This document shows positions 1,051-33,922 of a stretch of DNA of 64,000 nt, one piece after another; the stretch's first letter is position 1; each line of letters starts with the position of its first letter. The DNA is from an uncultured Bacteroides sp. (GTDB lineage: Bacteria; Bacillota; Clostridia; Lachnospirales; Lachnospiraceae). A program made the position numbers and the translations under genes. The notes under the pieces were generated by a model. The model made no database searches. It was given only the letters and a program-made list of their open reading frames with translations, and was not told the DNA's origin. The DNA lies in contig CAZLZH010000002.1 in the NCBI GenBank assembly GCA_964563955.1, forward strand, positions 12,517 through 76,516. The letters run 5' to 3'.

Positions 1051-2898
1051 TCAGACTTCCGGTTTCAGCTTAGCCATGCACTCATCTATCATAGCATTGA
1101 TCTCCGGCACGGTGTCCGCAAGACCTCTGTAATATTTCGAGCTGTTCTGATACAAGCGTATGGACTCTTGCAGGTCATCCTCCATCTCCTCATAGACTGT
1201 GGAATTAAAATCATAATCCGTCTGCGCAGCAACCTTCGTAAAGAGTATCTGCTCCTCCATATTCGTAAGCTTTTTATCCAACCCTGCCATTCTGGCATTG
1301 ATAGCCTTTAATGCCTGCGTATCAATCCTTTTGGCAATCAGCATATCGGCAGCACGCGTACAGTCGACGCTGATTTCCGTCATTTCCGCACCTATGTCGC
1401 TTAGATGCTCCCGCATACCTTTTAGGGTATCGATAATCACGCTTTGCTCCTGAAACAAACGCTGCTTGGAGCGCAAAATTCCCTCGACATCACACTCCAC
1501 CGTACAATACTTATCAATCGCATCCCGAAGGGGCATGATCGTCGTATTCTTTTTAAATGCACCGCCCTCCGTCGCATCAATAAATTCCACATCCGGACAG
1601 GAGTACGCCAAATCCTCAATGTTTTTAATGAACATAAAGTAGTCCATCTTTGTCACGACATCTTCACCATAGATATCCTTGACCATAACAAGATTTTTTT
1701 TACTAAATTCATTTCCTACCAATTTACTGCCATCCGCATATTGCTTTCCGCTCGTAAGAGCCAGATCCTGCCCTATCATGATGATCCTTTTAAAGCCCCA
1801 CTCCACAGCCAACGCCATGGCGGCAAGTGCAACCGAGCCTCCCGAGAACAAGCTTCTGATCTCCGAACCCTGCTCCTTAAAAAGTCTGTCCCAAACCAGA
1901 AAATCGGACGTATAAAAAATTAAATCCTTAGGCTTTACCAGCTCCAGTGCATCCGTGCTGGCACTCATATCCGCAAGCATGACGATATCAGAGAGTCCTT
2001 CTGCCTCAAAATTGCGCAGTTCTTTGTTGTTGTCGACTGTGATGATCGCATCCGGTCGGATTCCACGTTTCATGACCGTGCGAATCGCAGAATCAACCAC
2101 CAGTATAAACGCCCTGCCCTTCGCTTCCTTTAACAAATCTACATTTTTTTCCAGGGATGGACCCGCTGCCACAATGATAACCGGCAACCCCTCCGGAAAA
2201 GCACCCACATAAGAGATTCCCGCCCTGCATCCGGGCAGAAATCGCATATTTTGTATACTCGTATACGCAAACCGTTTGCCAAGATCAAGTATCGTATTCG
2301 TCTGTATATGATACTCAATCACTTTATCGGTTATGATGGAATGATAGGTTTTTAGCTGCTCCGGAAATATCTTTTTATAAACAGGCACCAAAAGATATTT
2401 ATTTTTGCCCTCATTAAATGTATTGGAATATTTCTGAAGGAAAAGACCAAACTGATCGTCGTTTAATCCTGCAACAGCAAGAAAAAACCGATTTGACGCA
2501 AGCAAATCTGTGATATCTATATCATGTATAACCCGCATAAATATATCCGCACAAGGCTCATACACAAAGCAGCCTGTATTTTTCTTATTTTTATTCAAAA
2601 ATTCTCGTGAAAAAGCGCCATTTCCAAGACCATACAAGGTAATATAACACTGTTCCGACATATCCAGGCAATCCGCCATAAACTTTTCTGCCTCTGCGGA
2701 TGGATTGTATCTTGAATTCAAATAATTTGCTTTTCCATCTTTATAATAGGTGACGACCGTATCTCCATTCTTTGCCAGCTCGGAAAGCGCAATTTCCTGA
2801 TTCCAGCAGTCCTCATACGCTAGGATGGCATCATACAAGCGTGCACCTCGTTTTTTAATTATCGCAAGATTCTTTTCATATATCGTTGGCATATTCAT
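1051..2898 (-). CDS. maf: Motility-associated factor (Maf/DUF115, MptE-like domain), putative flagellin glycosyltransferase
   Basis: 615 aa with family motifs IIVAAGPSLEKN, RPDAIITVD, SGGSVA and IIMIGQDLA; two genes downstream of flagellin. Confidence 0.8.
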   Translation of the reverse strand: MNMPTIYEKNLAIIKKRGARLYDAILAYEDCWNQEIALSELAKNGDTVVTYYKDGKANYLNSRYNPSAEAEKFMADCLDMSEQCYITLYGLGNGAFSREFLNKNKKNTGCFVYEPCADIFMRVIHDIDITDLLASNRFFLAVAGLNDDQFGLFLQKYSNTFNEGKNKYLLVPVYKKIFPEQLKTYHSIITDKVIEYHIQTNTILDLGKRFAYTSIQNMRFLPGCRAGISYVGAFPEGLPVIIVAAGPSLEKNVDLLKEAKGRAFILVVDSAIRTVMKRGIRPDAIITVDNNKELRNFEAEGLSDIVMLADMSASTDALELVKPKDLIFYTSDFLVWDRLFKEQGSEIRSLFSGGSVALAAMALAVEWGFKRIIMIGQDLALTSGKQYADGSKLVGNEFSKKNLVMVKDIYGEDVVTKMDYFMFIKNIEDLAYSCPDVEFIDATEGGAFKKNTTIMPLRDAIDKYCTVECDVEGILRSKQRLFQEQSVIIDTLKGMREHLSDIGAEMTEISVDCTRAADMLIAKRIDTQALKAINARMAGLDKKLTNMEEQILFTKVAAQTDYDFNSTVYEEMEDDLQESIRLYQNSSKYYRGLADTVPEINAMIDECMAKLKPEV

Positions 2899-2905
2899 CC
2901 CCTGT

Positions 2906-3181
2906 TTAGCTTAATCCGGCTAATATCTCTAACAATTCATACGTTATCAGATCCGCAAGCTCTGTGGCGTCCTGCTGCTCCATGGCATTCAGGATCGGTT
3001 CAAGCGCATCCTGAACAAGCCTCTTTCTTTCTTCCTCATCCTCTATCCATGTAGAGATCTCTGCAAGATTCGGTATAACCTCTCCCATCTGTGCAATCCC
3101 TTGCGATGCATATCCCTGATATAATACATCCGCAATCTCCTCCAACCGTATGCATGTAGTATCTAACAACTTTCTATCCAT
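2906..3181 (-). CDS. Small acidic hypothetical protein between flagellin and maf
   Basis: 91-aa ORF with strong RBS (GGAGGAGG), ending 7 bp before the maf start. Confidence 0.75.
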   Translation of the reverse strand: MDRKLLDTTCIRLEEIADVLYQGYASQGIAQMGEVIPNLAEISTWIEDEEERKRLVQDALEPILNAMEQQDATELADLITYELLEILAGLS

Positions 3182-3202
3182 ATATCTGCCTCCTCCTAAA
3201 AC

Positions 3203-3240
3203 AAAATACGGCTGACCCGAAAACGAGCCAGCCTATATTT
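3203..3240 (-). terminator. Stem-loop terminator after flagellin 1
   Basis: Minus strand GGCTGGCTCG-TTTT-CGGGTCAGCC followed by GTATTTTGTTTT. Confidence 0.6.
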
Positions 3241-3256
3241 TGTCAATAATTTTTAA

Positions 3257-4111
3257 TTACTGAAGTAATGAAAGTACACCCTGAGTAGACTGATTTGCCT
3301 GAGCGAGCATTGACTGAGCTGCCTGCTGAAGAATGTTATTCTTCGTGTAGTTCGTCATTTCAGTTGCCATATCAGTATCTCTGATCTGAGACTCAGCAGC
3401 TGTCAGGTTCTCTGAGTAGTTCTCGAGGTTATCGATTGTGTACTCAAGTCTGTTCTGCTTAGCACCAAGTGAAGATCTTGCATCAGATACTGTCTTGATA
3501 GCAGATGAGATAAGCTTCATAGCCGATGAAGCCTCATCATGGCTGAACATGTTAAGCTCTGCTGTTGTTGTAGATGAGTTTGTTGCAATCGTTGAACCAG
3601 AAGCACCGAAAAGTGTAGATGCGTTCATGGCCTTGATTGAAATCTTCATGTTCTCGCCAGAGTTAGCACCAACCTGAAGATACTTGCCTGTGAAGTCACC
3701 ATTCAAAAGCTTTGTTCCGTTGAATGCTGCCTTTGTAGAGATAGAATCGATCTCCTGTGCAAGCTCGTTGATCTCAGCCTGGATAGCTGAACGATCCTCA
3801 GTAGCGTTAACATCGTTAGCTGCCTTTGTAGCAAGCTCACCCATACGCTGAAGGATGCTATGAATCTGACTCATGTTTCCTTCTGCTGTCTGGATAAGAG
3901 ATACGCCATCCTCAGCATTCTTAACTGACTGGTTAATACCTCTGATCTGGTTTCTCATCTTCTCACTGATAGAAAGACCTGCTGCATCATCAGCTGCTCT
4001 GTTAACCTGGTAGCCGGATGACAACTTCTCAGTTGACTTCTGAACTGCCTTAACGTTTGTGCCTAACATTCTGTTTGTGTTTGCTGCCTGCAAATTGTGC
4101 TGTACTACCAT
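3257..4111 (-). CDS. fliC: Flagellin 1 (short, essentially D0/D1 only)
   Basis: N-terminal KLSSGYQVNRAADDAAGLSISEKMR and C-terminal RSSLGAKQNRLE...SQIRDTDMA...QGVLSLLQ; 284 aa. Confidence 0.97.
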   Translation of the reverse strand: MVVQHNLQAANTNRMLGTNVKAVQKSTEKLSSGYQVNRAADDAAGLSISEKMRNQIRGINQSVKNAEDGVSLIQTAEGNMSQIHSILQRMGELATKAANDVNATEDRSAIQAEINELAQEIDSISTKAAFNGTKLLNGDFTGKYLQVGANSGENMKISIKAMNASTLFGASGSTIATNSSTTTAELNMFSHDEASSAMKLISSAIKTVSDARSSLGAKQNRLEYTIDNLENYSENLTAAESQIRDTDMATEMTNYTKNNILQQAAQSMLAQANQSTQGVLSLLQ

Positions 4112-7291: not shown

Positions 7292-7747
7292 CTAACGGCG
7301 TTCGTCAACCAAAAGTCCTGCCATTTCCCAAGCCTTTGCCAACATATCGAGTGCCTTCTCCGGAGGAATCTCCCGGATCACCTCGTCCGTATCGCTGTCT
7401 GTTACGGTAATCGAAATACGATTTGTATCCTCGTGATACTTAAAGCTAAGCTGTGTGTGTTTTATCACACTCGGCTGTCTTACCTTTTTATTCAAGTCAT
7501 CCACAGCAGCCTTTACCTTGTCCGAAGCAATTTCCTTGTCAGACTGCACACCTGCGCGGTCCTGCTGATTCCCGCTTTGATTGTCATTGCCTCCCTTGGA
7601 TGCAACCGGCGGCAGACTGTCTACCTGCACCTGTGCACCCTCCGCACTAACATTGATATTCTGTGTCTCTGCCGTGCGTGGTGTACTTGTCCGCGTCTGC
7701 GAACTTACATTTAAGGCTCCTACGCCTCCAATACCATCAATTGCCAT
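7292..7747 (-). CDS. flaG: Flagellar protein FlaG
   Basis: LSFKYHEDTNRISITVTDSDTDEVIREIPPEKALDMLAKAWEMAGLLVDERR motif. Start taken at MAIDGIG (7747, RBS AGGAGG) rather than the track start 7804. Confidence 0.9.
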   Translation of the reverse strand: MAIDGIGGVGALNVSSQTRTSTPRTAETQNINVSAEGAQVQVDSLPPVASKGGNDNQSGNQQDRAGVQSDKEIASDKVKAAVDDLNKKVRQPSVIKHTQLSFKYHEDTNRISITVTDSDTDEVIREIPPEKALDMLAKAWEMAGLLVDERR

Positions 7748-7823
7748 AATTATGCGCCTCCTTGCGTAATATAAAAAACCTCTTTGTGTGCCATCCTTGT
7801 GCACACAGTCTTTTCTACTTGTG

Positions 7824-7851
7824 TTATCGTCACAATATAAAAAATACTTTA
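7824..7851 (-). promoter_or_regulatory. Sigma-28-like promoter of flaG-fliD-fliS
   Basis: Minus strand TAAAG-N16-ACGATAA. Confidence 0.6.
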
Positions 7852-7858
7852 TATTATT

Positions 7859-8074
7859 TTACAACAGTTTTTTCAAACTTTCCACATCTAAATTCCGGGC
7901 AGCCTCTCTTGTTGCCTCCTGAATCTGTACATAGATTTCTTTCCGATAGACAGGCACGCTCTTCGGTGCGGATATTCCAAGCTTTATCTGGTCTCCTTTG
8001 ACCTCAAGCACGGTGATTTCGATATTTCCGCCTATCATAATGGATTCCCCTTGTTTTCTGGATAGTGCTAACAT
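7859..8074 (-). CDS. csrA: Carbon storage regulator CsrA
   Basis: MLALSRKQGESIMIGGNIEITVLEVKGDQIKLGISAPKSVPVYRKEIY. Confidence 0.97.
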   Translation of the reverse strand: MLALSRKQGESIMIGGNIEITVLEVKGDQIKLGISAPKSVPVYRKEIYVQIQEATREAARNLDVESLKKLL

Positions 8075-28774: not shown

Positions 28775-29188
28775 TTACTTATCTGCCTCACAATATACGC
28801 AGCGGTATATCCGATTTTCTTCATCGGTTAATTTAAATATATGCGCGATACCCTGTTCTGTGGATGTAATACAGCGAGGATTTTTACATTTTTTTATATT
28901 TACGAGTTTTTTCGGCAGCGCAAGCTTCTTTTTTTCGATTGTCTGCCCATCCTTGATGATGCTGACGGTAATTCCCGGGTCGATATAACCAAGCACATCC
29001 AGATTCAAGTCATACTCCTTGTCGATTTTTAAAATATCCTTTTTCCCCATCTTGCTGCTCTTTACGTTTTGCAATATCGCAACCGAGCAATCAAGCTTAT
29101 CAAGCTCAAGATCATGATATACCTGAAGCGCCTTACCTGCGGTAATATGATCAAGTACAATTCCGTTTTGAATACTATCTATTTTCAT
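28775..29188 (-). CDS. pyrI: Aspartate carbamoyltransferase regulatory chain
   Basis: IQNGIVLDHI, Zn ligands CKNPRC and CVYC. Start at MKIDS (29188, RBS GGAGG). Confidence 0.93.
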   Translation of the reverse strand: MKIDSIQNGIVLDHITAGKALQVYHDLELDKLDCSVAILQNVKSSKMGKKDILKIDKEYDLNLDVLGYIDPGITVSIIKDGQTIEKKKLALPKKLVNIKKCKNPRCITSTEQGIAHIFKLTDEENRIYRCVYCEADK

Positions 29189-29237
29189 CTTTATTCCTCC
29201 TTCTTGCAAATCAATTAGATAATTACTTAATTGCTCG

Positions 29238-29387
29238 GAGTTGTACATGATGATATTTTTTACGCAGACTCGCTCCCGCTCTGTGAATCACGCAGCGGAC
29301 ACTAAGTTCACGATGACGTTGTCATCGTTCACTAAGTGCCGGCGTGCTTCAACGGTCTGCTTTAAAATATATCATCTTGTACAACTC
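29238..29387. repeat. 150-bp nested inverted-repeat element (REP/REPIN- or MITE-like) between pyrB and pyrI
   Basis: Outer arms GAGTTGTACA(T/A)GATGATAT; inner pairs GCAGAC/GTCTGC, CACGC/GCGTG and CGATGAC/GTCATCG. Confidence 0.6.
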
Positions 29388-29477
29388 GTACAATACCTTA
29401 TAGTATTATTTATGTAAACTCATAACTTAATTAACCCTGTCGATGTTTTACTGTTTCTGCAGTCGTCGGTATCTGCC

Positions 29478-30440
29478 TTAGACGATTATTTTGGATAGTT
29501 TGTCTTCGGGCAGGTTTAGGGCAGCTCCGTTGGCACGAAGCAGAGTAAGCATCAGTGCCATACGCACATATTTTCCGTTTAGTGCCTGCCGGAAATAGCA
29601 TGCGCGCGGGTCATTATCCACTGCAACGGAGATTTCATTGACACGCGGAAGCGGGTGCAGGATTGACAAATCTTCTTTTGCATGCTTCAATTTTGCCTCG
29701 TCAAGTATGTATGTATCCTTCAACCGGACATAATCTGCCTCATTGAAGAACCGCTCCTTTTGCACACGCGTCATATACAAAACATCAAGCTCCGGCATCA
29801 CTTCCTCCATGGTGGAAACCTCTCTGTACGGAATGCCCTCTTTTTCAAATACTTCCGTGATGATATAATCCGGAACACGAAGCTCCTTCGGTGCAATCAA
29901 AATAAACTTAATATTTTCATAACGGGATAGTGCTTTGATTAACGAATGTACGGTACGTCCGAATTTCAAATCGCCGCAAAGTCCAATCGTAAAATCAGAG
30001 AGCTTCCCCTTCTCCCGCAGTATCGTAAGAAGGTCTGTCAACGTCTGTGTCGGATGATTGTGCCCGCCGTCTCCGGCATTGATAATCGGTACACTGCTCA
30101 CCATGGATGCGAGCTTTGGCGCGCCCTCCTTTGGATGCCGCATGGCAATAATATCTGCATAGCACCCAACCACGCGCGTCGTATCACCGACGCTCTCGCC
30201 CTTCGTAGCAGAAGAAGAATCAGCCGAAGAAAAACCAAGTACATTTCCCCCGAGTTCCATCATTGCCGCTTCAAAGCTAAGCCGGGTTCTTGTACTTGGT
30301 TCAAAAAATAAGGTTGCAAGTTTCTTTCCTTTACACGCCTCACAATAGGCATCTTTATCCTGAATAATGTCGAGCGACAAATCCAGAATATGTTGAATCT
30401 CCTCCACAGTCAAATCTGTTGGGTCAATCAAATGTTTCAT
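29478..30440 (-). CDS. pyrB: Aspartate carbamoyltransferase catalytic chain
   Basis: [32 protein letters not shown]. Confidence 0.97.
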
Positions 30441-30505
30441 TCTGCTAACTCCTCCTTTTGGAACATCCGCTCATACAAAATTTGCCTTCGGCAAATGAGC
30501 GGACG

Positions 30506-31039
30506 CTACATGTCAGGTTTTTCATAAAAATCTGACACAATCTTTTCTTCCTGCTCCGATTTTGGATTTGCACATCGTATTTTGTGGTCACGAAACAAAT
30601 CTGCGATTGCAAACCGATCCGCACGGTCGCATACAAGTATGTATGTCCTCCGATTCGCACGAATTTTCAATACAATTACATTGCTGTCCTCCCCCCTGTT
30701 TTCCAGGAGGTAGGACTGCATAAATTCCCATTCAATAAAAGAGGTTCCGACTAACGCACCCTCCTCGGTAATTCCGCTCTGAATCCTGGTTGACAGCACG
30801 ATAAACATCACAAACATCAAAACTGCCGGCACAAAGCTGTAAATCTCAAGATATACAAGCACCACAAGTCCTGCCAGTCCAACGTTGGCATAGACAACCT
30901 CCGAAATATTTAATTTGTGATGCAGCCGGCTCTTTATTATGATTCCGGATTGTCTTTTTATGGCGGATATACAAACAATCACGCCTGTACCAAATCCAAG
31001 AAACAAGACAAATGCCAGCACCAAAAGCCATACATCCAT
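30506..31039 (-). CDS. Membrane protein with short soluble C-terminal domain (DUF5673-like)
   Basis: Three hydrophobic segments, then GITEEGALVGTSFIEW. Confidence 0.65.
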   Translation of the reverse strand: MDVWLLVLAFVLFLGFGTGVIVCISAIKRQSGIIIKSRLHHKLNISEVVYANVGLAGLVVLVYLEIYSFVPAVLMFVMFIVLSTRIQSGITEEGALVGTSFIEWEFMQSYLLENRGEDSNVIVLKIRANRRTYILVCDRADRFAIADLFRDHKIRCANPKSEQEEKIVSDFYEKPDM

Positions 31040-31042
31040 GTT

Positions 31043-31978
31043 TTAATTATCCTTAATCAATGTATACATAACTGCCTTCTCCGCATGGCGGCGGTTCTCT
31101 GCCTGATCGAGAATGTGCTCGAGGTTCTTCATCTCCACACTCTTGGAAATCTCAAATCCGATATGCATCGGCATATCATGAAATACAATTGCATGACTTC
31201 CCTCTAAGAAGTCATCATTGAGCTGATATGGCATCATCTTATCCATCAGTTCCTTCTTGCGGTCCTGATATGCAGGGTCATTGAAGAATTCCATATCCAA
31301 CCATGTATCAGTATAACATATATCCATCTCTTTGACATACTTCTTTACTTCTTCGATAGACATTTCCGGATCAAGCTCCACATAATAGCCTGTCTTCTTT
31401 GCTTCCTCGTAGAAATCCGGTCCGCATGCTGTATCATTCACAAGTGGAGTAAAGCCGTACAACGTTCCCTGTTTCATCTTGGAGAAAAACTCCACAAGCG
31501 AGTTAAACACATTATTTTTTGCTCCAATGTAGAGGAATTTTACATTGAGGCTGCCGAACTTTTCAATAATCGTCAGAGCATCCGCAAGAATCTGACACGG
31601 ATGATAGGAGTTGTCACAGCCGTTAATAAATGGAACCGTTACATTGTTTCCAAACAACTCTACCGTTTCATTCTTTACAAGACGCGCCATGATGATGTCC
31701 ACATTTCTGCACACATATTTAATCTCAGAAATCGGCTCTCCAAGCACAAAATTTGAATCACGCCAGAGCTGATTATAATAGGTTCCTCCAAGCTCGGTAA
31801 TACCAGTTGTAAAGGAAAGGAAGGTTCTTGTACTCGTCTTTTCAAACAATGTATACAGCTTTTTCCCTTCCAGTGCGTGGCTGTATTTCTCAGGATCTTT
31901 CTTCATGTCCAAAGCAAGATCCAAAATTTTCTGAAGCTCCTCTGCCGAGAAGTTTTTAAAGTTCAGCATGTTTTTCAT
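31043..31978 (-). CDS. Ornithine carbamoyltransferase-like transcarbamylase (atypical substrate-side motifs)
   Basis: FEKTSTRT, HPCQILAD and QAENRRH present; DTWLDME and HDMP stand in place of DxxxSMG and HCLP. Confidence 0.8.
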   Translation of the reverse strand: MKNMLNFKNFSAEELQKILDLALDMKKDPEKYSHALEGKKLYTLFEKTSTRTFLSFTTGITELGGTYYNQLWRDSNFVLGEPISEIKYVCRNVDIIMARLVKNETVELFGNNVTVPFINGCDNSYHPCQILADALTIIEKFGSLNVKFLYIGAKNNVFNSLVEFFSKMKQGTLYGFTPLVNDTACGPDFYEEAKKTGYYVELDPEMSIEEVKKYVKEMDICYTDTWLDMEFFNDPAYQDRKKELMDKMMPYQLNDDFLEGSHAIVFHDMPMHIGFEISKSVEMKNLEHILDQAENRRHAEKAVMYTLIKDN

Positions 31979-31997
31979 ATTCTCTAACCCCCAATTT

Positions 31998-33185
31998 TTA
32001 TAAATATGCCTTCAAGGCGTCTGCCTTGTCGGTTTTCTCCCACGGAAGGTCAACATCCGTTCTTCCGAAATGTCCGTAAGCTGCTGTCTTCTTATAAATC
32101 GGGCGTCTCAAATCCAGCATCTTGATGATTCCTGCCGGACGCAGGTCAAAGTTTTCACGAATAATCTCTACAAGCTTTTCATTGCTTACCTTTCCGGTTC
32201 CGAATGTATCCACATTGATGGATGTCGGCTTTGCAACACCAATCGCATAGGAAAGCTGAATCTGACATTTTTCTGCAAGTCCTGCCGCTACAATATTCTT
32301 CGCTACATAACGGGCAGCATATGCTGCGGAACGGTCAACCTTTGTGCAGTCCTTTCCGGAAAATGCACCGCCGCCGTGACACGCATATCCACCATACGTA
32401 TCAACGATAATCTTTCGTCCGGTCAGTCCGGAATCCCCGTTTGGTCCGCCGATTACAAACCGTCCGGTCGGATTGATAAAGAATTTCGTGTTGTCATCCA
32501 CCATATCCTTCGGCAAAACAGCATCAAATACATACTTTTTAATGTCTGCATGAATCTGCTCCTGTGTTACCTTCTCACTGTGCTGCGTTGAAAGTACAAC
32601 CGCCTCTAATCTATATGGTTTCCCATTCTCATCATACTCCACGGATACCTGTGTCTTTCCATCCGGTCTCAGATACGGAAGTGTCCCATTCTTGCGAACC
32701 TCCGAGAGCTTGAGTGCAAGCTTATGTGCAAGTGAAATCGGATATGGCATAAGCTCCGGCGTCTCAGTTGTGGCATAGCCGAACATCATACCCTGATCGC
32801 CGGCACCGATTGCGTCAATTTCTGCATCTGACATCAAATGCTCTTTTGCCTCGAGCGCCTTGTCCACGCCCATAGCAATATCTGCAGACTGCTTGTCAAG
32901 TGCTGTGATGACACCACAGGTGTCACAATCAAATCCATACTTTGCACGGTCATATCCGATCTCCCGGATTGTCTCCCGTACAATGCTTTGAATATCAATC
33001 TGCGCCTTCGTTGTGATTTCTCCCATGACGAGAACAAGTCCGGTCGTAATAGCTGTCTCACATGCGACACGGCTCATCGGGTCCTGCTCTAAAAGCGCAT
33101 CTAAAATGGCATCACTAATCTGGTCACATATTTTATCCGGATGCCCTTCTGTTACAGACTCTGAAGTGAAAAGTAATTTCTCCAT
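31998..33185 (-). CDS. metK: S-adenosylmethionine synthetase
   Basis: [28 protein letters not shown]. Confidence 0.98.
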
Positions 33186-33211
33186 AATTTTTTCTCCTTA
33201 GCTTAAATAAT

Positions 33212-33240
33212 AAAAAATCCGGTTGCAAGCAACCGGATTT
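33212..33240 (-). terminator. Intrinsic terminator in the metK leader (riboswitch expression platform)
   Basis: AAATCCGGTTGC-TT-GCAACCGGATTT followed by a T-run on the minus strand, between aptamer and start codon. Confidence 0.85.
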
Positions 33241-33259
33241 GAATGTTTAAATCAAATCT

Positions 33260-33369
33260 TCTTATTGCTCGACAACTTCTTATAAAGTATCGCTCAGGCC
33301 GGCACCTTCCGCTTCCGCGGGGTTGCCGTGGCTTCCTCGTCCCTTATGACTCCACCACTCTGAATAAGA
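33260..33369 (-). ncRNA. SAM-I (S-box) riboswitch aptamer
   Basis: Minus strand UCUUAUU-CAGAG-UGGUGGA-GUC(AUAAGG)GAC-GAGGAAGCCAC-GGCAACC...GGUGCC...AAUAAGA. P1, kink-turn P2, GCAACC and GGUGC cores are visible, upstream of metK. Confidence 0.85.
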
Positions 33370-33406
33370 TAGATATGTTTATATATATATCATATATCTT
33401 TTATTG

Positions 33407-33922
33407 TCAATCCCTAATTTTAATTCTTTTACAAACAAATATTACCAAAAACAAAATTGCAGTTCCAACAGCGGCACCTGCACCATCAAGCGCAACATCA
33501 GATAATTGTCCGCTCCTGCCAGGTACAAACAACTGATGAAGTTCATCCGTTGCAGCATATGCTGTTGCAATTGCCCACGGAATCAACACATTCCACCTGT
33601 TTTTCCGATTTTTATCGTACCATGCCCCAACGAGCAGCATCGCAAACGCAGCGTACTCAGCGGCATGTGCCGTCTTACGAATCGGATGGTCCACCTTCTC
33701 TGCAAACGCAAGCTGTTTGCTCTCCGGCCACGATGCAAAATCGTGATGCACGATTTTTCCAAACATCATACCAACCTCATAGCTGTCCCCGGTAGACTCC
33801 TCGCCATTCCTTGCAGAAAACGCAAATATCATACACGCAAATGCAGCTGCCAAAATCCAAAAAACAAGCTTTCGCTTAGATATGTCTGCGGATGGCATCT
33901 GCAAGTGCTTTTTGCTCTTCAT
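33407..33922 (-). CDS. VanZ-like membrane protein
   Basis: IRKTAHAAEYA and YAATDELHQLFVPGRSGQLSDVALD. Start uncertain; it overlaps the HIT gene end. Confidence 0.85.
   Translation of the reverse strand: MKSKKHLQMPSADISKRKLVFWILAAAFACMIFAFSARNGEESTGDSYEVGMMFGKIVHHDFASWPESKQLAFAEKVDHPIRKTAHAAEYAAFAMLLVGAWYDKNRKNRWNVLIPWAIATAYAATDELHQLFVPGRSGQLSDVALDGAGAAVGTAILFLVIFVCKRIKIRD

Follow-up and report, generated by a model that had tools for sequence, protein, structure and literature searches.

A divergent transcarbamylase encoded behind metK is probably the arginine-pathway ornithine carbamoyltransferase of a Coprococcus-like lineage

Introduction

What is the acceptor of a transcarbamylase whose carbamoyl-phosphate motifs are intact but whose amine-substrate motifs are rewritten, and why should its gene lie directly behind metK and an S-adenosylmethionine (SAM) riboswitch? 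This question was raised by a stretch of 64,000 nucleotides (nt) of contig CAZLZH010000002.1 (positions 12,517 to 76,516 of the forward strand; assembly GCA_964563955.1), hereafter called the window, which is deposited as an uncultured Bacteroides sp. and placed by GTDB in the Lachnospiraceae. A first-pass annotation of this DNA had suggested that the enzyme, designated P0001 here, might use a different acceptor and have a role linked to SAM or polyamines. Our analysis points to a more ordinary function, in that P0001 is most likely the organism's only ornithine carbamoyltransferase (OTCase) for arginine synthesis. We consider it probable that P0001 is a genuine anabolic OTCase from a variant clade that has yet to be characterised, called DME/HDMP here after its two altered motifs, and that this clade displaced the canonical argF in the lineage. 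The reaction would then be that of ArgF, in which carbamoyl phosphate and L-ornithine yield L-citrulline.

Results and Discussion

An OTCase-like protein with a rewritten acceptor site

P0001 carries both Pfam domains that define the transcarbamylase superfamily, OTCace_N and OTCace (111.5 and 110.4 bits). In what follows, the ligand roles of residues and the motif definitions are those of Shi et al. 2015 (PMC4581275). The ligands of carbamoyl phosphate are kept (S49, T50, R51, T52, R99, H126, Q129 and R296), including the motifs STRT (S49-T-R-T52) and HPCQ (H126-P-C-Q129) that the first-pass annotation had called intact. The ornithine ligands are likewise kept at four of five positions, namely K47 of FxKxSxRT, the Asn of NNV (N155/N156), D224 and the loop residue M229, and the Lys, Asn167, Arg106 and Arg319 expected of EC 2.1.3.3 thus have their equivalents in K47, N155/N156, R99 and R296. 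The two signature motifs of EC 2.1.3.3, DxxxSMG and HCLP, are absent from P0001. The loop at 224-230 reads DTWLDME, with D228 for Ser and E230 for Gly, and H267-D-M-P270 stands in place of HCLP, with D268-M269 for Cys-Leu; the earlier description of the enzyme as atypical at its acceptor-site motifs was accurate in both respects. Furthermore, GDGNNV is changed to GAKNNV, the 80s loop is rewritten (SNF... instead of QLGRGE), and STRTR is changed to STRTF. Across the DME/HDMP clade, loss of the STRTR Arg is accompanied by loss of the Glu in the following SFE (SFT, SFA or SFS), a pattern that would fit a lost structural salt bridge with this Glu rather than a lost catalytic residue.

None of the NCBIfam transcarbamylase models was matched at its curated cutoff. 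The best score was obtained with NF011379 (273.3 bits against a cutoff of 373), and the OTCase models TIGR00658 (196.5 against 280.85) and NF001986 (208.7 against 306) gave lower values, as did the putrescine carbamoyltransferase model TIGR04384 (126.5 against 500) and the acetylornithine-type model NF003384 (70 against 288).

The closest solved structures are those of anabolic OTCases (best phmmer E value 4.6e-37; approximately 28-32% identity in the Foldseek alignments). An AlphaFold model of P0001 (predicted local distance difference test score, pLDDT, 95.2) retrieved anabolic OTCases as its top Foldseek matches with TM scores of 0.83-0.87, and its predicted fold is the unknotted one of OTCase; neither a proline-rich loop nor an extended 120s loop appeared in the P0001 alignments or in the model. 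P0001 resembles canonical ArgF/ArgI (TIGR00658; PDB 1a1s, 3tpf and 4nf2) in its two-domain unknotted fold (TM score 0.86), in SxRT and HPxQ, in the Arg of beta4 and that of the C-terminal ENR, in the FxKxSxRT Lys and the NNV Asn, and in two residues of the 240s loop, its first Asp and its Met; it differs in its low identity (28-38%), its DTW(V/L/I)DME, HDMP(M/I) and G(A/V/I)xNNV motifs, its 80s loop and its sub-cutoff scores.

Might P0001 be a decayed or non-catalytic paralogue that is merely carried in the metK-pyrBI cluster? Such an origin could explain both STRTF and the failure to reach any model cutoff. However, none of the carbamoyl-phosphate ligands has been lost, each of the 55 carriers of the window's genus has an intact open frame, named loci of the Coprococcus clade encode proteins 75-94% identical to P0001, the positions that are invariant across the clade match the catalytic residues, and the Arg-to-Phe change covaries with the disappearance of the Glu that is presumed to be its partner (SFE to SFT). 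We regard decay as extremely unlikely.

The sole OTCase-type gene of arginine-pathway genomes

The genome to which the window belongs is 94% complete. A canonical argF elsewhere in it, which the first-pass annotation had named as a point to check, was not found either with hidden Markov models (HMMs) or by tblastn with canonical Lachnospiraceae OTCases; the only matches besides P0001 were two pyrB genes. The same genome carries argG, argH, argJ, argC, argB, ArgD-like aminotransferases, ArgR and two carB genes, and P0001 would thus have the role of ArgF/ArgI, as the only OTCase in a gene set of the arginine-prototroph type. A catabolic ornithine or putrescine transcarbamylase, which would supply carbamoyl phosphate for ATP synthesis, might be considered given that the gene lies outside arg operons in most genomes. 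However, neither arginine deiminase (arcA) nor carbamate kinase (arcC) was found in this genome, which argues against a catabolic role, and the best structural matches are anabolic enzymes; we find a catabolic function scarcely credible.

We surveyed the Lachnospiraceae with one genome per genus (n=151). A canonical OTCase was found in 130 genera (398-452 bits), a P0001-type hit alone in nine (196-219 bits), neither in 12, and both types together in none. All nine P0001-type genera have argH. Within the window's genus, the P0001-type gene is present in 55 of the 59 species and a full canonical copy in none, including a closed, one-contig genome of 2.9 Mb. One bin of the genus (87% complete, 3% contaminated) has, besides its DME gene, a canonical OTCase fragment of 199 positions (263 bits; G168:C239:1298-1897), which represents either contamination or a rare second copy. 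In Megasphaera, the DME-type gene occurs in 26 of 31 species, again with no canonical copy in any. The same exclusivity is seen in five distant carriers, namely a Bathyarchaeota metagenome-assembled genome (MAG), Thioalkalivibrio HK1, a Poribacteria chromosome, an Azotimanducaceae chromosome and M. cerevisiae; in all five, two of which are complete chromosomes, the DME gene is the sole OTCase-like gene and argH is present. We propose that the canonical argF would have been replaced by the DME/HDMP enzyme both in Coprococcus-like Lachnospiraceae and in Megasphaera.

Gene order in two other genomes points in the same direction. In a Bacillota MAG (L041), the genes argC-argJ-argB-argD-X-argG-argH lie on one strand, and X, in the argF position, encodes a protein with DTWVDME and HDMPI that shares 51% identity with P0001; a Dehalococcoidales contig (L040) has the arrangement X-argJ-argB. 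Both the co-occurrence with the arginine pathway and the placement in arg operons are thus as expected for the argF step. A genome-wide scan with the ArgR-box consensus, in which up to one mismatch was allowed, gave 92 matches, and the arg promoters did not stand out among them. By eye, ARG-box-like palindromes could be made out in the argG/argC spacer and ahead of monocistronic orthologues; they are not used as evidence here.

An enzyme of the arginine pathway need not act on free ornithine, and we also considered N-acetyl-, N-succinyl- or LysW-ornithine as the acceptor, or dual specificity. LysW-type routes occur in some archaea. The clade is abundant in Bathyarchaeia, and the P0001 motifs are altered. 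A precedent is provided by the argF' enzymes of Xanthomonas and Bacteroides (PMC4581275), likewise divergent transcarbamylases that replace argF lineage-wide and were long mis- or under-annotated. In contrast to P0001, these enzymes, which act on N-succinyl- or N-acetyl-ornithine, are knotted and possess the proline-rich loop, and P0001, an unknotted OTCase fold of approximately 311 amino acids with neither that loop nor the extended 120s loop, does not group with them by motif, fold or its NF003384 score. In addition, the genome contains argJ, whose product makes free ornithine, and argJ adjoins the orthologue in L040 and L041. A modified ornithine as the acceptor, or dual specificity, seems very improbable.

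A widespread clade nested among OTCases

How far does this variant extend? From a homologue search over 1.8 billion cluster representatives and a motif table built from its results, proteins 34-52% identical to P0001 were found to share DTW(V/L/I)(D/N)ME, H(D/C)MP and G(A/V/I)xNNV. When one genome per GTDB species was scanned with a pattern that contained the DME loop but not HDMP, at least 597 loci were revealed; the carriers include Coprococcus, Lachnospira, Megasphaera, Dehalococcoidales, Lentisphaeria and many Bathyarchaeia, and also Poribacteria, Latescibacterota and Gammaproteobacteria (including Thioalkalivibrio and Pseudomonadales/Cellvibrionales). HDMP accompanies the DME loop everywhere except in sequences from Poribacteria and Latescibacterota, which retain HCLPA (L076, L077, L080, L082-L086, L090, L091 and L097).

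In a maximum-likelihood tree rooted on PyrB, the DME sequences are monophyletic (49 rows; SH-aLRT 96) and nested among the canonical OTCases, and the forms with HCLPA fall outside the main HDMP group. The first-pass annotation had proposed placing the protein within the superfamily by phylogeny; in this tree, its clade lies inside the OTCases. Because those HCLPA forms that are in the tree are unresolved at the base of the clade, the topology suggests that the loop changed before the switch from Cys to Asp.

The Lachnospiraceae DME sequences form a subclade with 100% support that includes Megasphaera, and the canonical Lachnospiraceae OTCases are placed elsewhere in the tree. The nesting of the Megasphaera enzymes (L037 and L038; genomes G214-G243) within this subclade suggests that the gene may have been transferred between Lachnospiraceae and Veillonellaceae. 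The orthologue of C. hominis is 94% identical to P0001, from which we conclude that the window derives from a relative of Coprococcus.

Three clade members that carry the DME/HDMP signature, P0134 (445 bits), P0137 (374) and a Bathyarchaeota protein, L048 (383), pass the cutoff of NF011379 (PRK14804), so that the NCBI name 'ornithine carbamoyltransferase' already covers the clade; we found no experimental basis for this name. In contrast, the Lachnospiraceae/Megasphaera subclade, including P0001, scores 271-308 bits, which is below the cutoff of 373, and in that subclade STRTR has become STRT(F/Y/A). Our literature search found no paper that pairs 'HDMP' with carbamoyltransferase; the variant is not described in the titles and abstracts of papers on the DxxxSMG motif, nor in a paper on amino-acid pathway reconstruction in the gut, and the search for nutritional data on Megasphaera gave nothing usable.

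Weighing the assignment

We infer roles for D228, E230 and D268 in which the Asp that replaces the Cys of HCLP would handle the attacking delta-amino group and the acidic loop would still close over ornithine. Several observations weigh against an assignment of P0001 as an ordinary ArgF. First, the change from Ser to Asp would put a negative charge at the canonical site of the ornithine alpha-carboxylate (residue roles from PMC4581275), and no NCBIfam transcarbamylase model, whether for OTCase or for another enzyme, reaches its cutoff with P0001. Second, nine other Lachnospiraceae genera have argH and no OTCase of any kind (G005, G021, G022, G028, G036, G044, G045, G060 and G063), so that argH alone is no proof of a full pathway. 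Third, the mutual exclusion in the Lachnospiraceae amounts to approximately one displacement event, not to nine independent observations. Fourth, most members of the clade lie outside arg operons. Fifth, it has no obvious physiological logic for the sole argF to be governed by a SAM riboswitch. Finally, we found no assay of any DME/HDMP clade member in the literature. With regard to the second point, an ArgG/ArgH-only variant for citrulline salvage has been described (PMC9026213), and the genera with argH and no OTCase are consistent with it; five of the nine were checked for an acetylornithine-type enzyme, and none was found.

Even with these points taken into account, an altered or broadened acceptor, whether a modified ornithine or another amine altogether, appears rather improbable to us. 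A bolder possibility, which we hold to be doubtful, is that the DME/HDMP clade is a mechanistically distinct form of OTCase, with Asp for Cys near the amine and an acidic loop for SMG, and that SAM throttles arginine synthesis in Coprococcus. If the mechanism were distinct, the use of protonated ornithine, a different sensitivity to pH, metals or inhibitors, or a wider acceptor range would be possible.

The function that we favour, anabolic OTCase, is ordinary and the enzymology is moderately interesting. Coprococcus and Megasphaera are common genera of the gut and rumen, and because none of the OTCase models tested scores their sole argF-type gene at or above its trusted cutoff, reconstructions based on HMMs could wrongly call them auxotrophs for arginine or citrulline; conversely, such reconstructions could treat the annotation as settled. 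The large clade, which spans Bathyarchaeia, Poribacteria, Latescibacterota, Gammaproteobacteria and Bacillota, is also a natural experiment on how far an acceptor site tolerates the substitutions Ser to Asp, Gly to Glu and Cys to Asp.

Linkage to metK and the question of another acceptor

Why, then, is the gene found behind metK? On the minus strand of the window, the order is SAM-I riboswitch, metK, the P0001 gene, a gene for a DUF5673 membrane protein, pyrB and pyrI (Table 1). The riboswitch is identified as RF00162 by a covariance score above the gathering threshold and by a terminator downstream. As previously noted, P0001 begins 19 nt past the metK stop, where it is preceded by a GGGGG ribosome-binding site. 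Because neither a terminator nor a promoter-like site was detected in this junction or towards the 3′ end of metK, the straightforward reading is that P0001 would be co-transcribed with metK from the promoter gated by the riboswitch. In the genus, this promoter would drive metK and the argF-like gene, an operon that is a small regulatory oddity; the DUF5673 gene and pyrBI follow. None of argC, argJ, argB, argG and argH lies within the window, in agreement with the earlier remark that no other arg genes are nearby.

In the window's genus, 53 of the 55 carrier species have metK immediately ahead of the gene, on the same strand and with gaps of approximately 21-352 nt; the two unlinked cases concern contig ends or a bin of 71% completeness. 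The linkage extends to three of the nine carrier genera of the Lachnospiraceae (the window's genus and two neighbouring ones) and to none of the other six, and it was not seen at the loci examined in distant clade members. Among 21 named loci of the Coprococcus clade, eight are linked to metK and 14 have pyrB-pyrI downstream, 12 of these with a DUF5673 gene just before pyrB. In relatives, moreover, a SAM riboswitch precedes metK whether a transcarbamylase follows or not (e.g., L024). Since the riboswitch is thus found with or without the transcarbamylase and the linkage is limited, the riboswitch belongs to metK, and the argF-like gene in this genus is a downstream passenger of metK, as pyrBI possibly is too. 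Conserved within the genus and found in few other genera, the linkage is best read as an inherited operon architecture, not as evidence for SAM-related chemistry.

The proposal that the acceptor is not ornithine but putrescine, cadaverine, lysine, a diamino acid or a SAM-derived amine, and that P0001 serves SAM or polyamine metabolism, would account for the position of its gene within the metK operon and for the retention of that operon throughout most of the genus. It would also agree with the altered and more acidic pocket (Ser to Asp, Gly to Glu, Cys to Asp). Moreover, the other enzymes known to carry Asp in HxLP are the diaminopropionate and diaminobutyrate transcarbamylases (DPTCase and DBTCase) of the viomycin and padanamide pathways, which carry HDLP (PMC4581275). 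In those enzymes, however, the first Asp of the loop is replaced by Thr or Ser ((T/S)RWQ(T/S)(T/M)G) and the genes lie in natural-product clusters, whereas P0001 keeps Asp224 within DTWLDME and has a primary-metabolism context; it therefore falls outside that group. Putrescine carbamoyltransferase differs from P0001 in having Gln in place of Lys47 in FxKxSxRT, a C-terminal extension of approximately 20 amino acids and a context of agmatine deiminase and carbamate kinase genes, and P0001, which lacks the extension, also falls far short of TIGR04384. A SAM decarboxylase was looked for in the genome and not found, which argues against a connection between SAM and polyamines, and carbamate kinase was likewise not found. 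More generally, this gene is the sole OTCase-type gene in genomes with the arginine pathway (argC, J, B, G and H in the window's own), it excludes the canonical argF, its orthologues hold the argF slot in arg operons, and the metK linkage is missing from six of the nine Lachnospiraceae genera and from distant lineages. Neither a different acceptor nor a SAM- or polyamine-linked role is supported, and we judge this proposal to be quite improbable.

In the longer spacers between metK and the transcarbamylase gene of other species, a separate promoter was sought; long nested palindromes were found there instead, with no terminator or clear promoter. Palindromes of approximately 150-230 nt occur in operon spacers (L020 7846-8000; L109, L110 and L111), and those behind metK belong to a different sequence family from the palindrome of the window. 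These elements look like insertions resembling repetitive extragenic palindromes (REP) or miniature inverted-repeat transposable elements (MITE).

Organisation of the locus and its relatives

The features of the locus are listed in Table 1. The promoter-like site was absent from the listing of the promoter scan because its last base is A.

Table 1. Features of the metK-pyrI region (window coordinates)
Feature	Coordinates	Strand	Basis or remark
Promoter-like site, TTGACA-17 nt-TATATA	33382..33410	(-)	Read by eye upstream of the riboswitch; putative
SAM-I riboswitch aptamer, RF00162	33259..33370	(-)	65.4 bits against gathering threshold 44.4; full model, 1-108
Riboswitch expression platform, intrinsic terminator	33205..33240	(-)	11-bp stem and T-run; hairpin 33215-33240
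metK, S-adenosylmethionine synthetase	31998..33185	(-)	TIGR01034, 606 bits
Divergent OTCase-family transcarbamylase P0001, 311 amino acids; proposed ArgF, DME/HDMP clade	31043..31978	(-)	Motifs, family scores, phylogeny, fold, comparative genomics
DUF5673 membrane protein gene	30506..31039	(-)	Three hydrophobic segments and C-terminal DUF5673
Weak hairpin, terminator-like, inside a larger inverted repeat	30480..30496	(-)	Spacer between the DUF5673 gene and pyrB
pyrB, aspartate carbamoyltransferase catalytic chain	29478..30440	(-)	TIGR00670, 339 bits; one of two genomic copies
pyrI, aspartate carbamoyltransferase regulatory chain	28775..29248	(-)	NF002063, 188 bits against cutoff 171

The DUF5673 gene begins 3 nt past the P0001 stop, which agrees with its earlier description as a coupled membrane protein. 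With the pyrBI pair downstream of the argF-like gene, two consumers of carbamoyl phosphate are clustered at this locus. Between pyrB and pyrI (29249-29477), there is a long nested palindromic element with a predicted, very stable hairpin. Both pyrB-pyrI and carB are present twice in the genome; the second pyrB-pyrI pair is on contig C37 (L003 1408-2895), and contigs C45 and C51 are involved.

The arrangement around the DUF5673 gene varies among relatives, although in most of them this gene directly precedes pyrB. In Coprococcus hominis (L018), the spacer between this gene and pyrB is only approximately 20 nt. In L012, an open reading frame of 469 amino acids with no NCBIfam match (2203-3612) lies between the transcarbamylase gene and the DUF5673 gene, and L027, L029 and L032 have a gap of approximately 1.6 kb there, similar in size to that of L012; at loci of the L012 type, the DUF5673 gene is still directly upstream of pyrB. 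In Coprococcus sp. OM04-5BH (L024), a GA-cis RNA motif (RF02987, 82.6 bits; 982-1066) is located between the SAM riboswitch and metK. In a Roseburia MAG (L039, approximately 7700-8000), the DME gene lies a few bases past a gene whose product, as judged by eye, has a C-terminus like that of a P-II nitrogen regulator.

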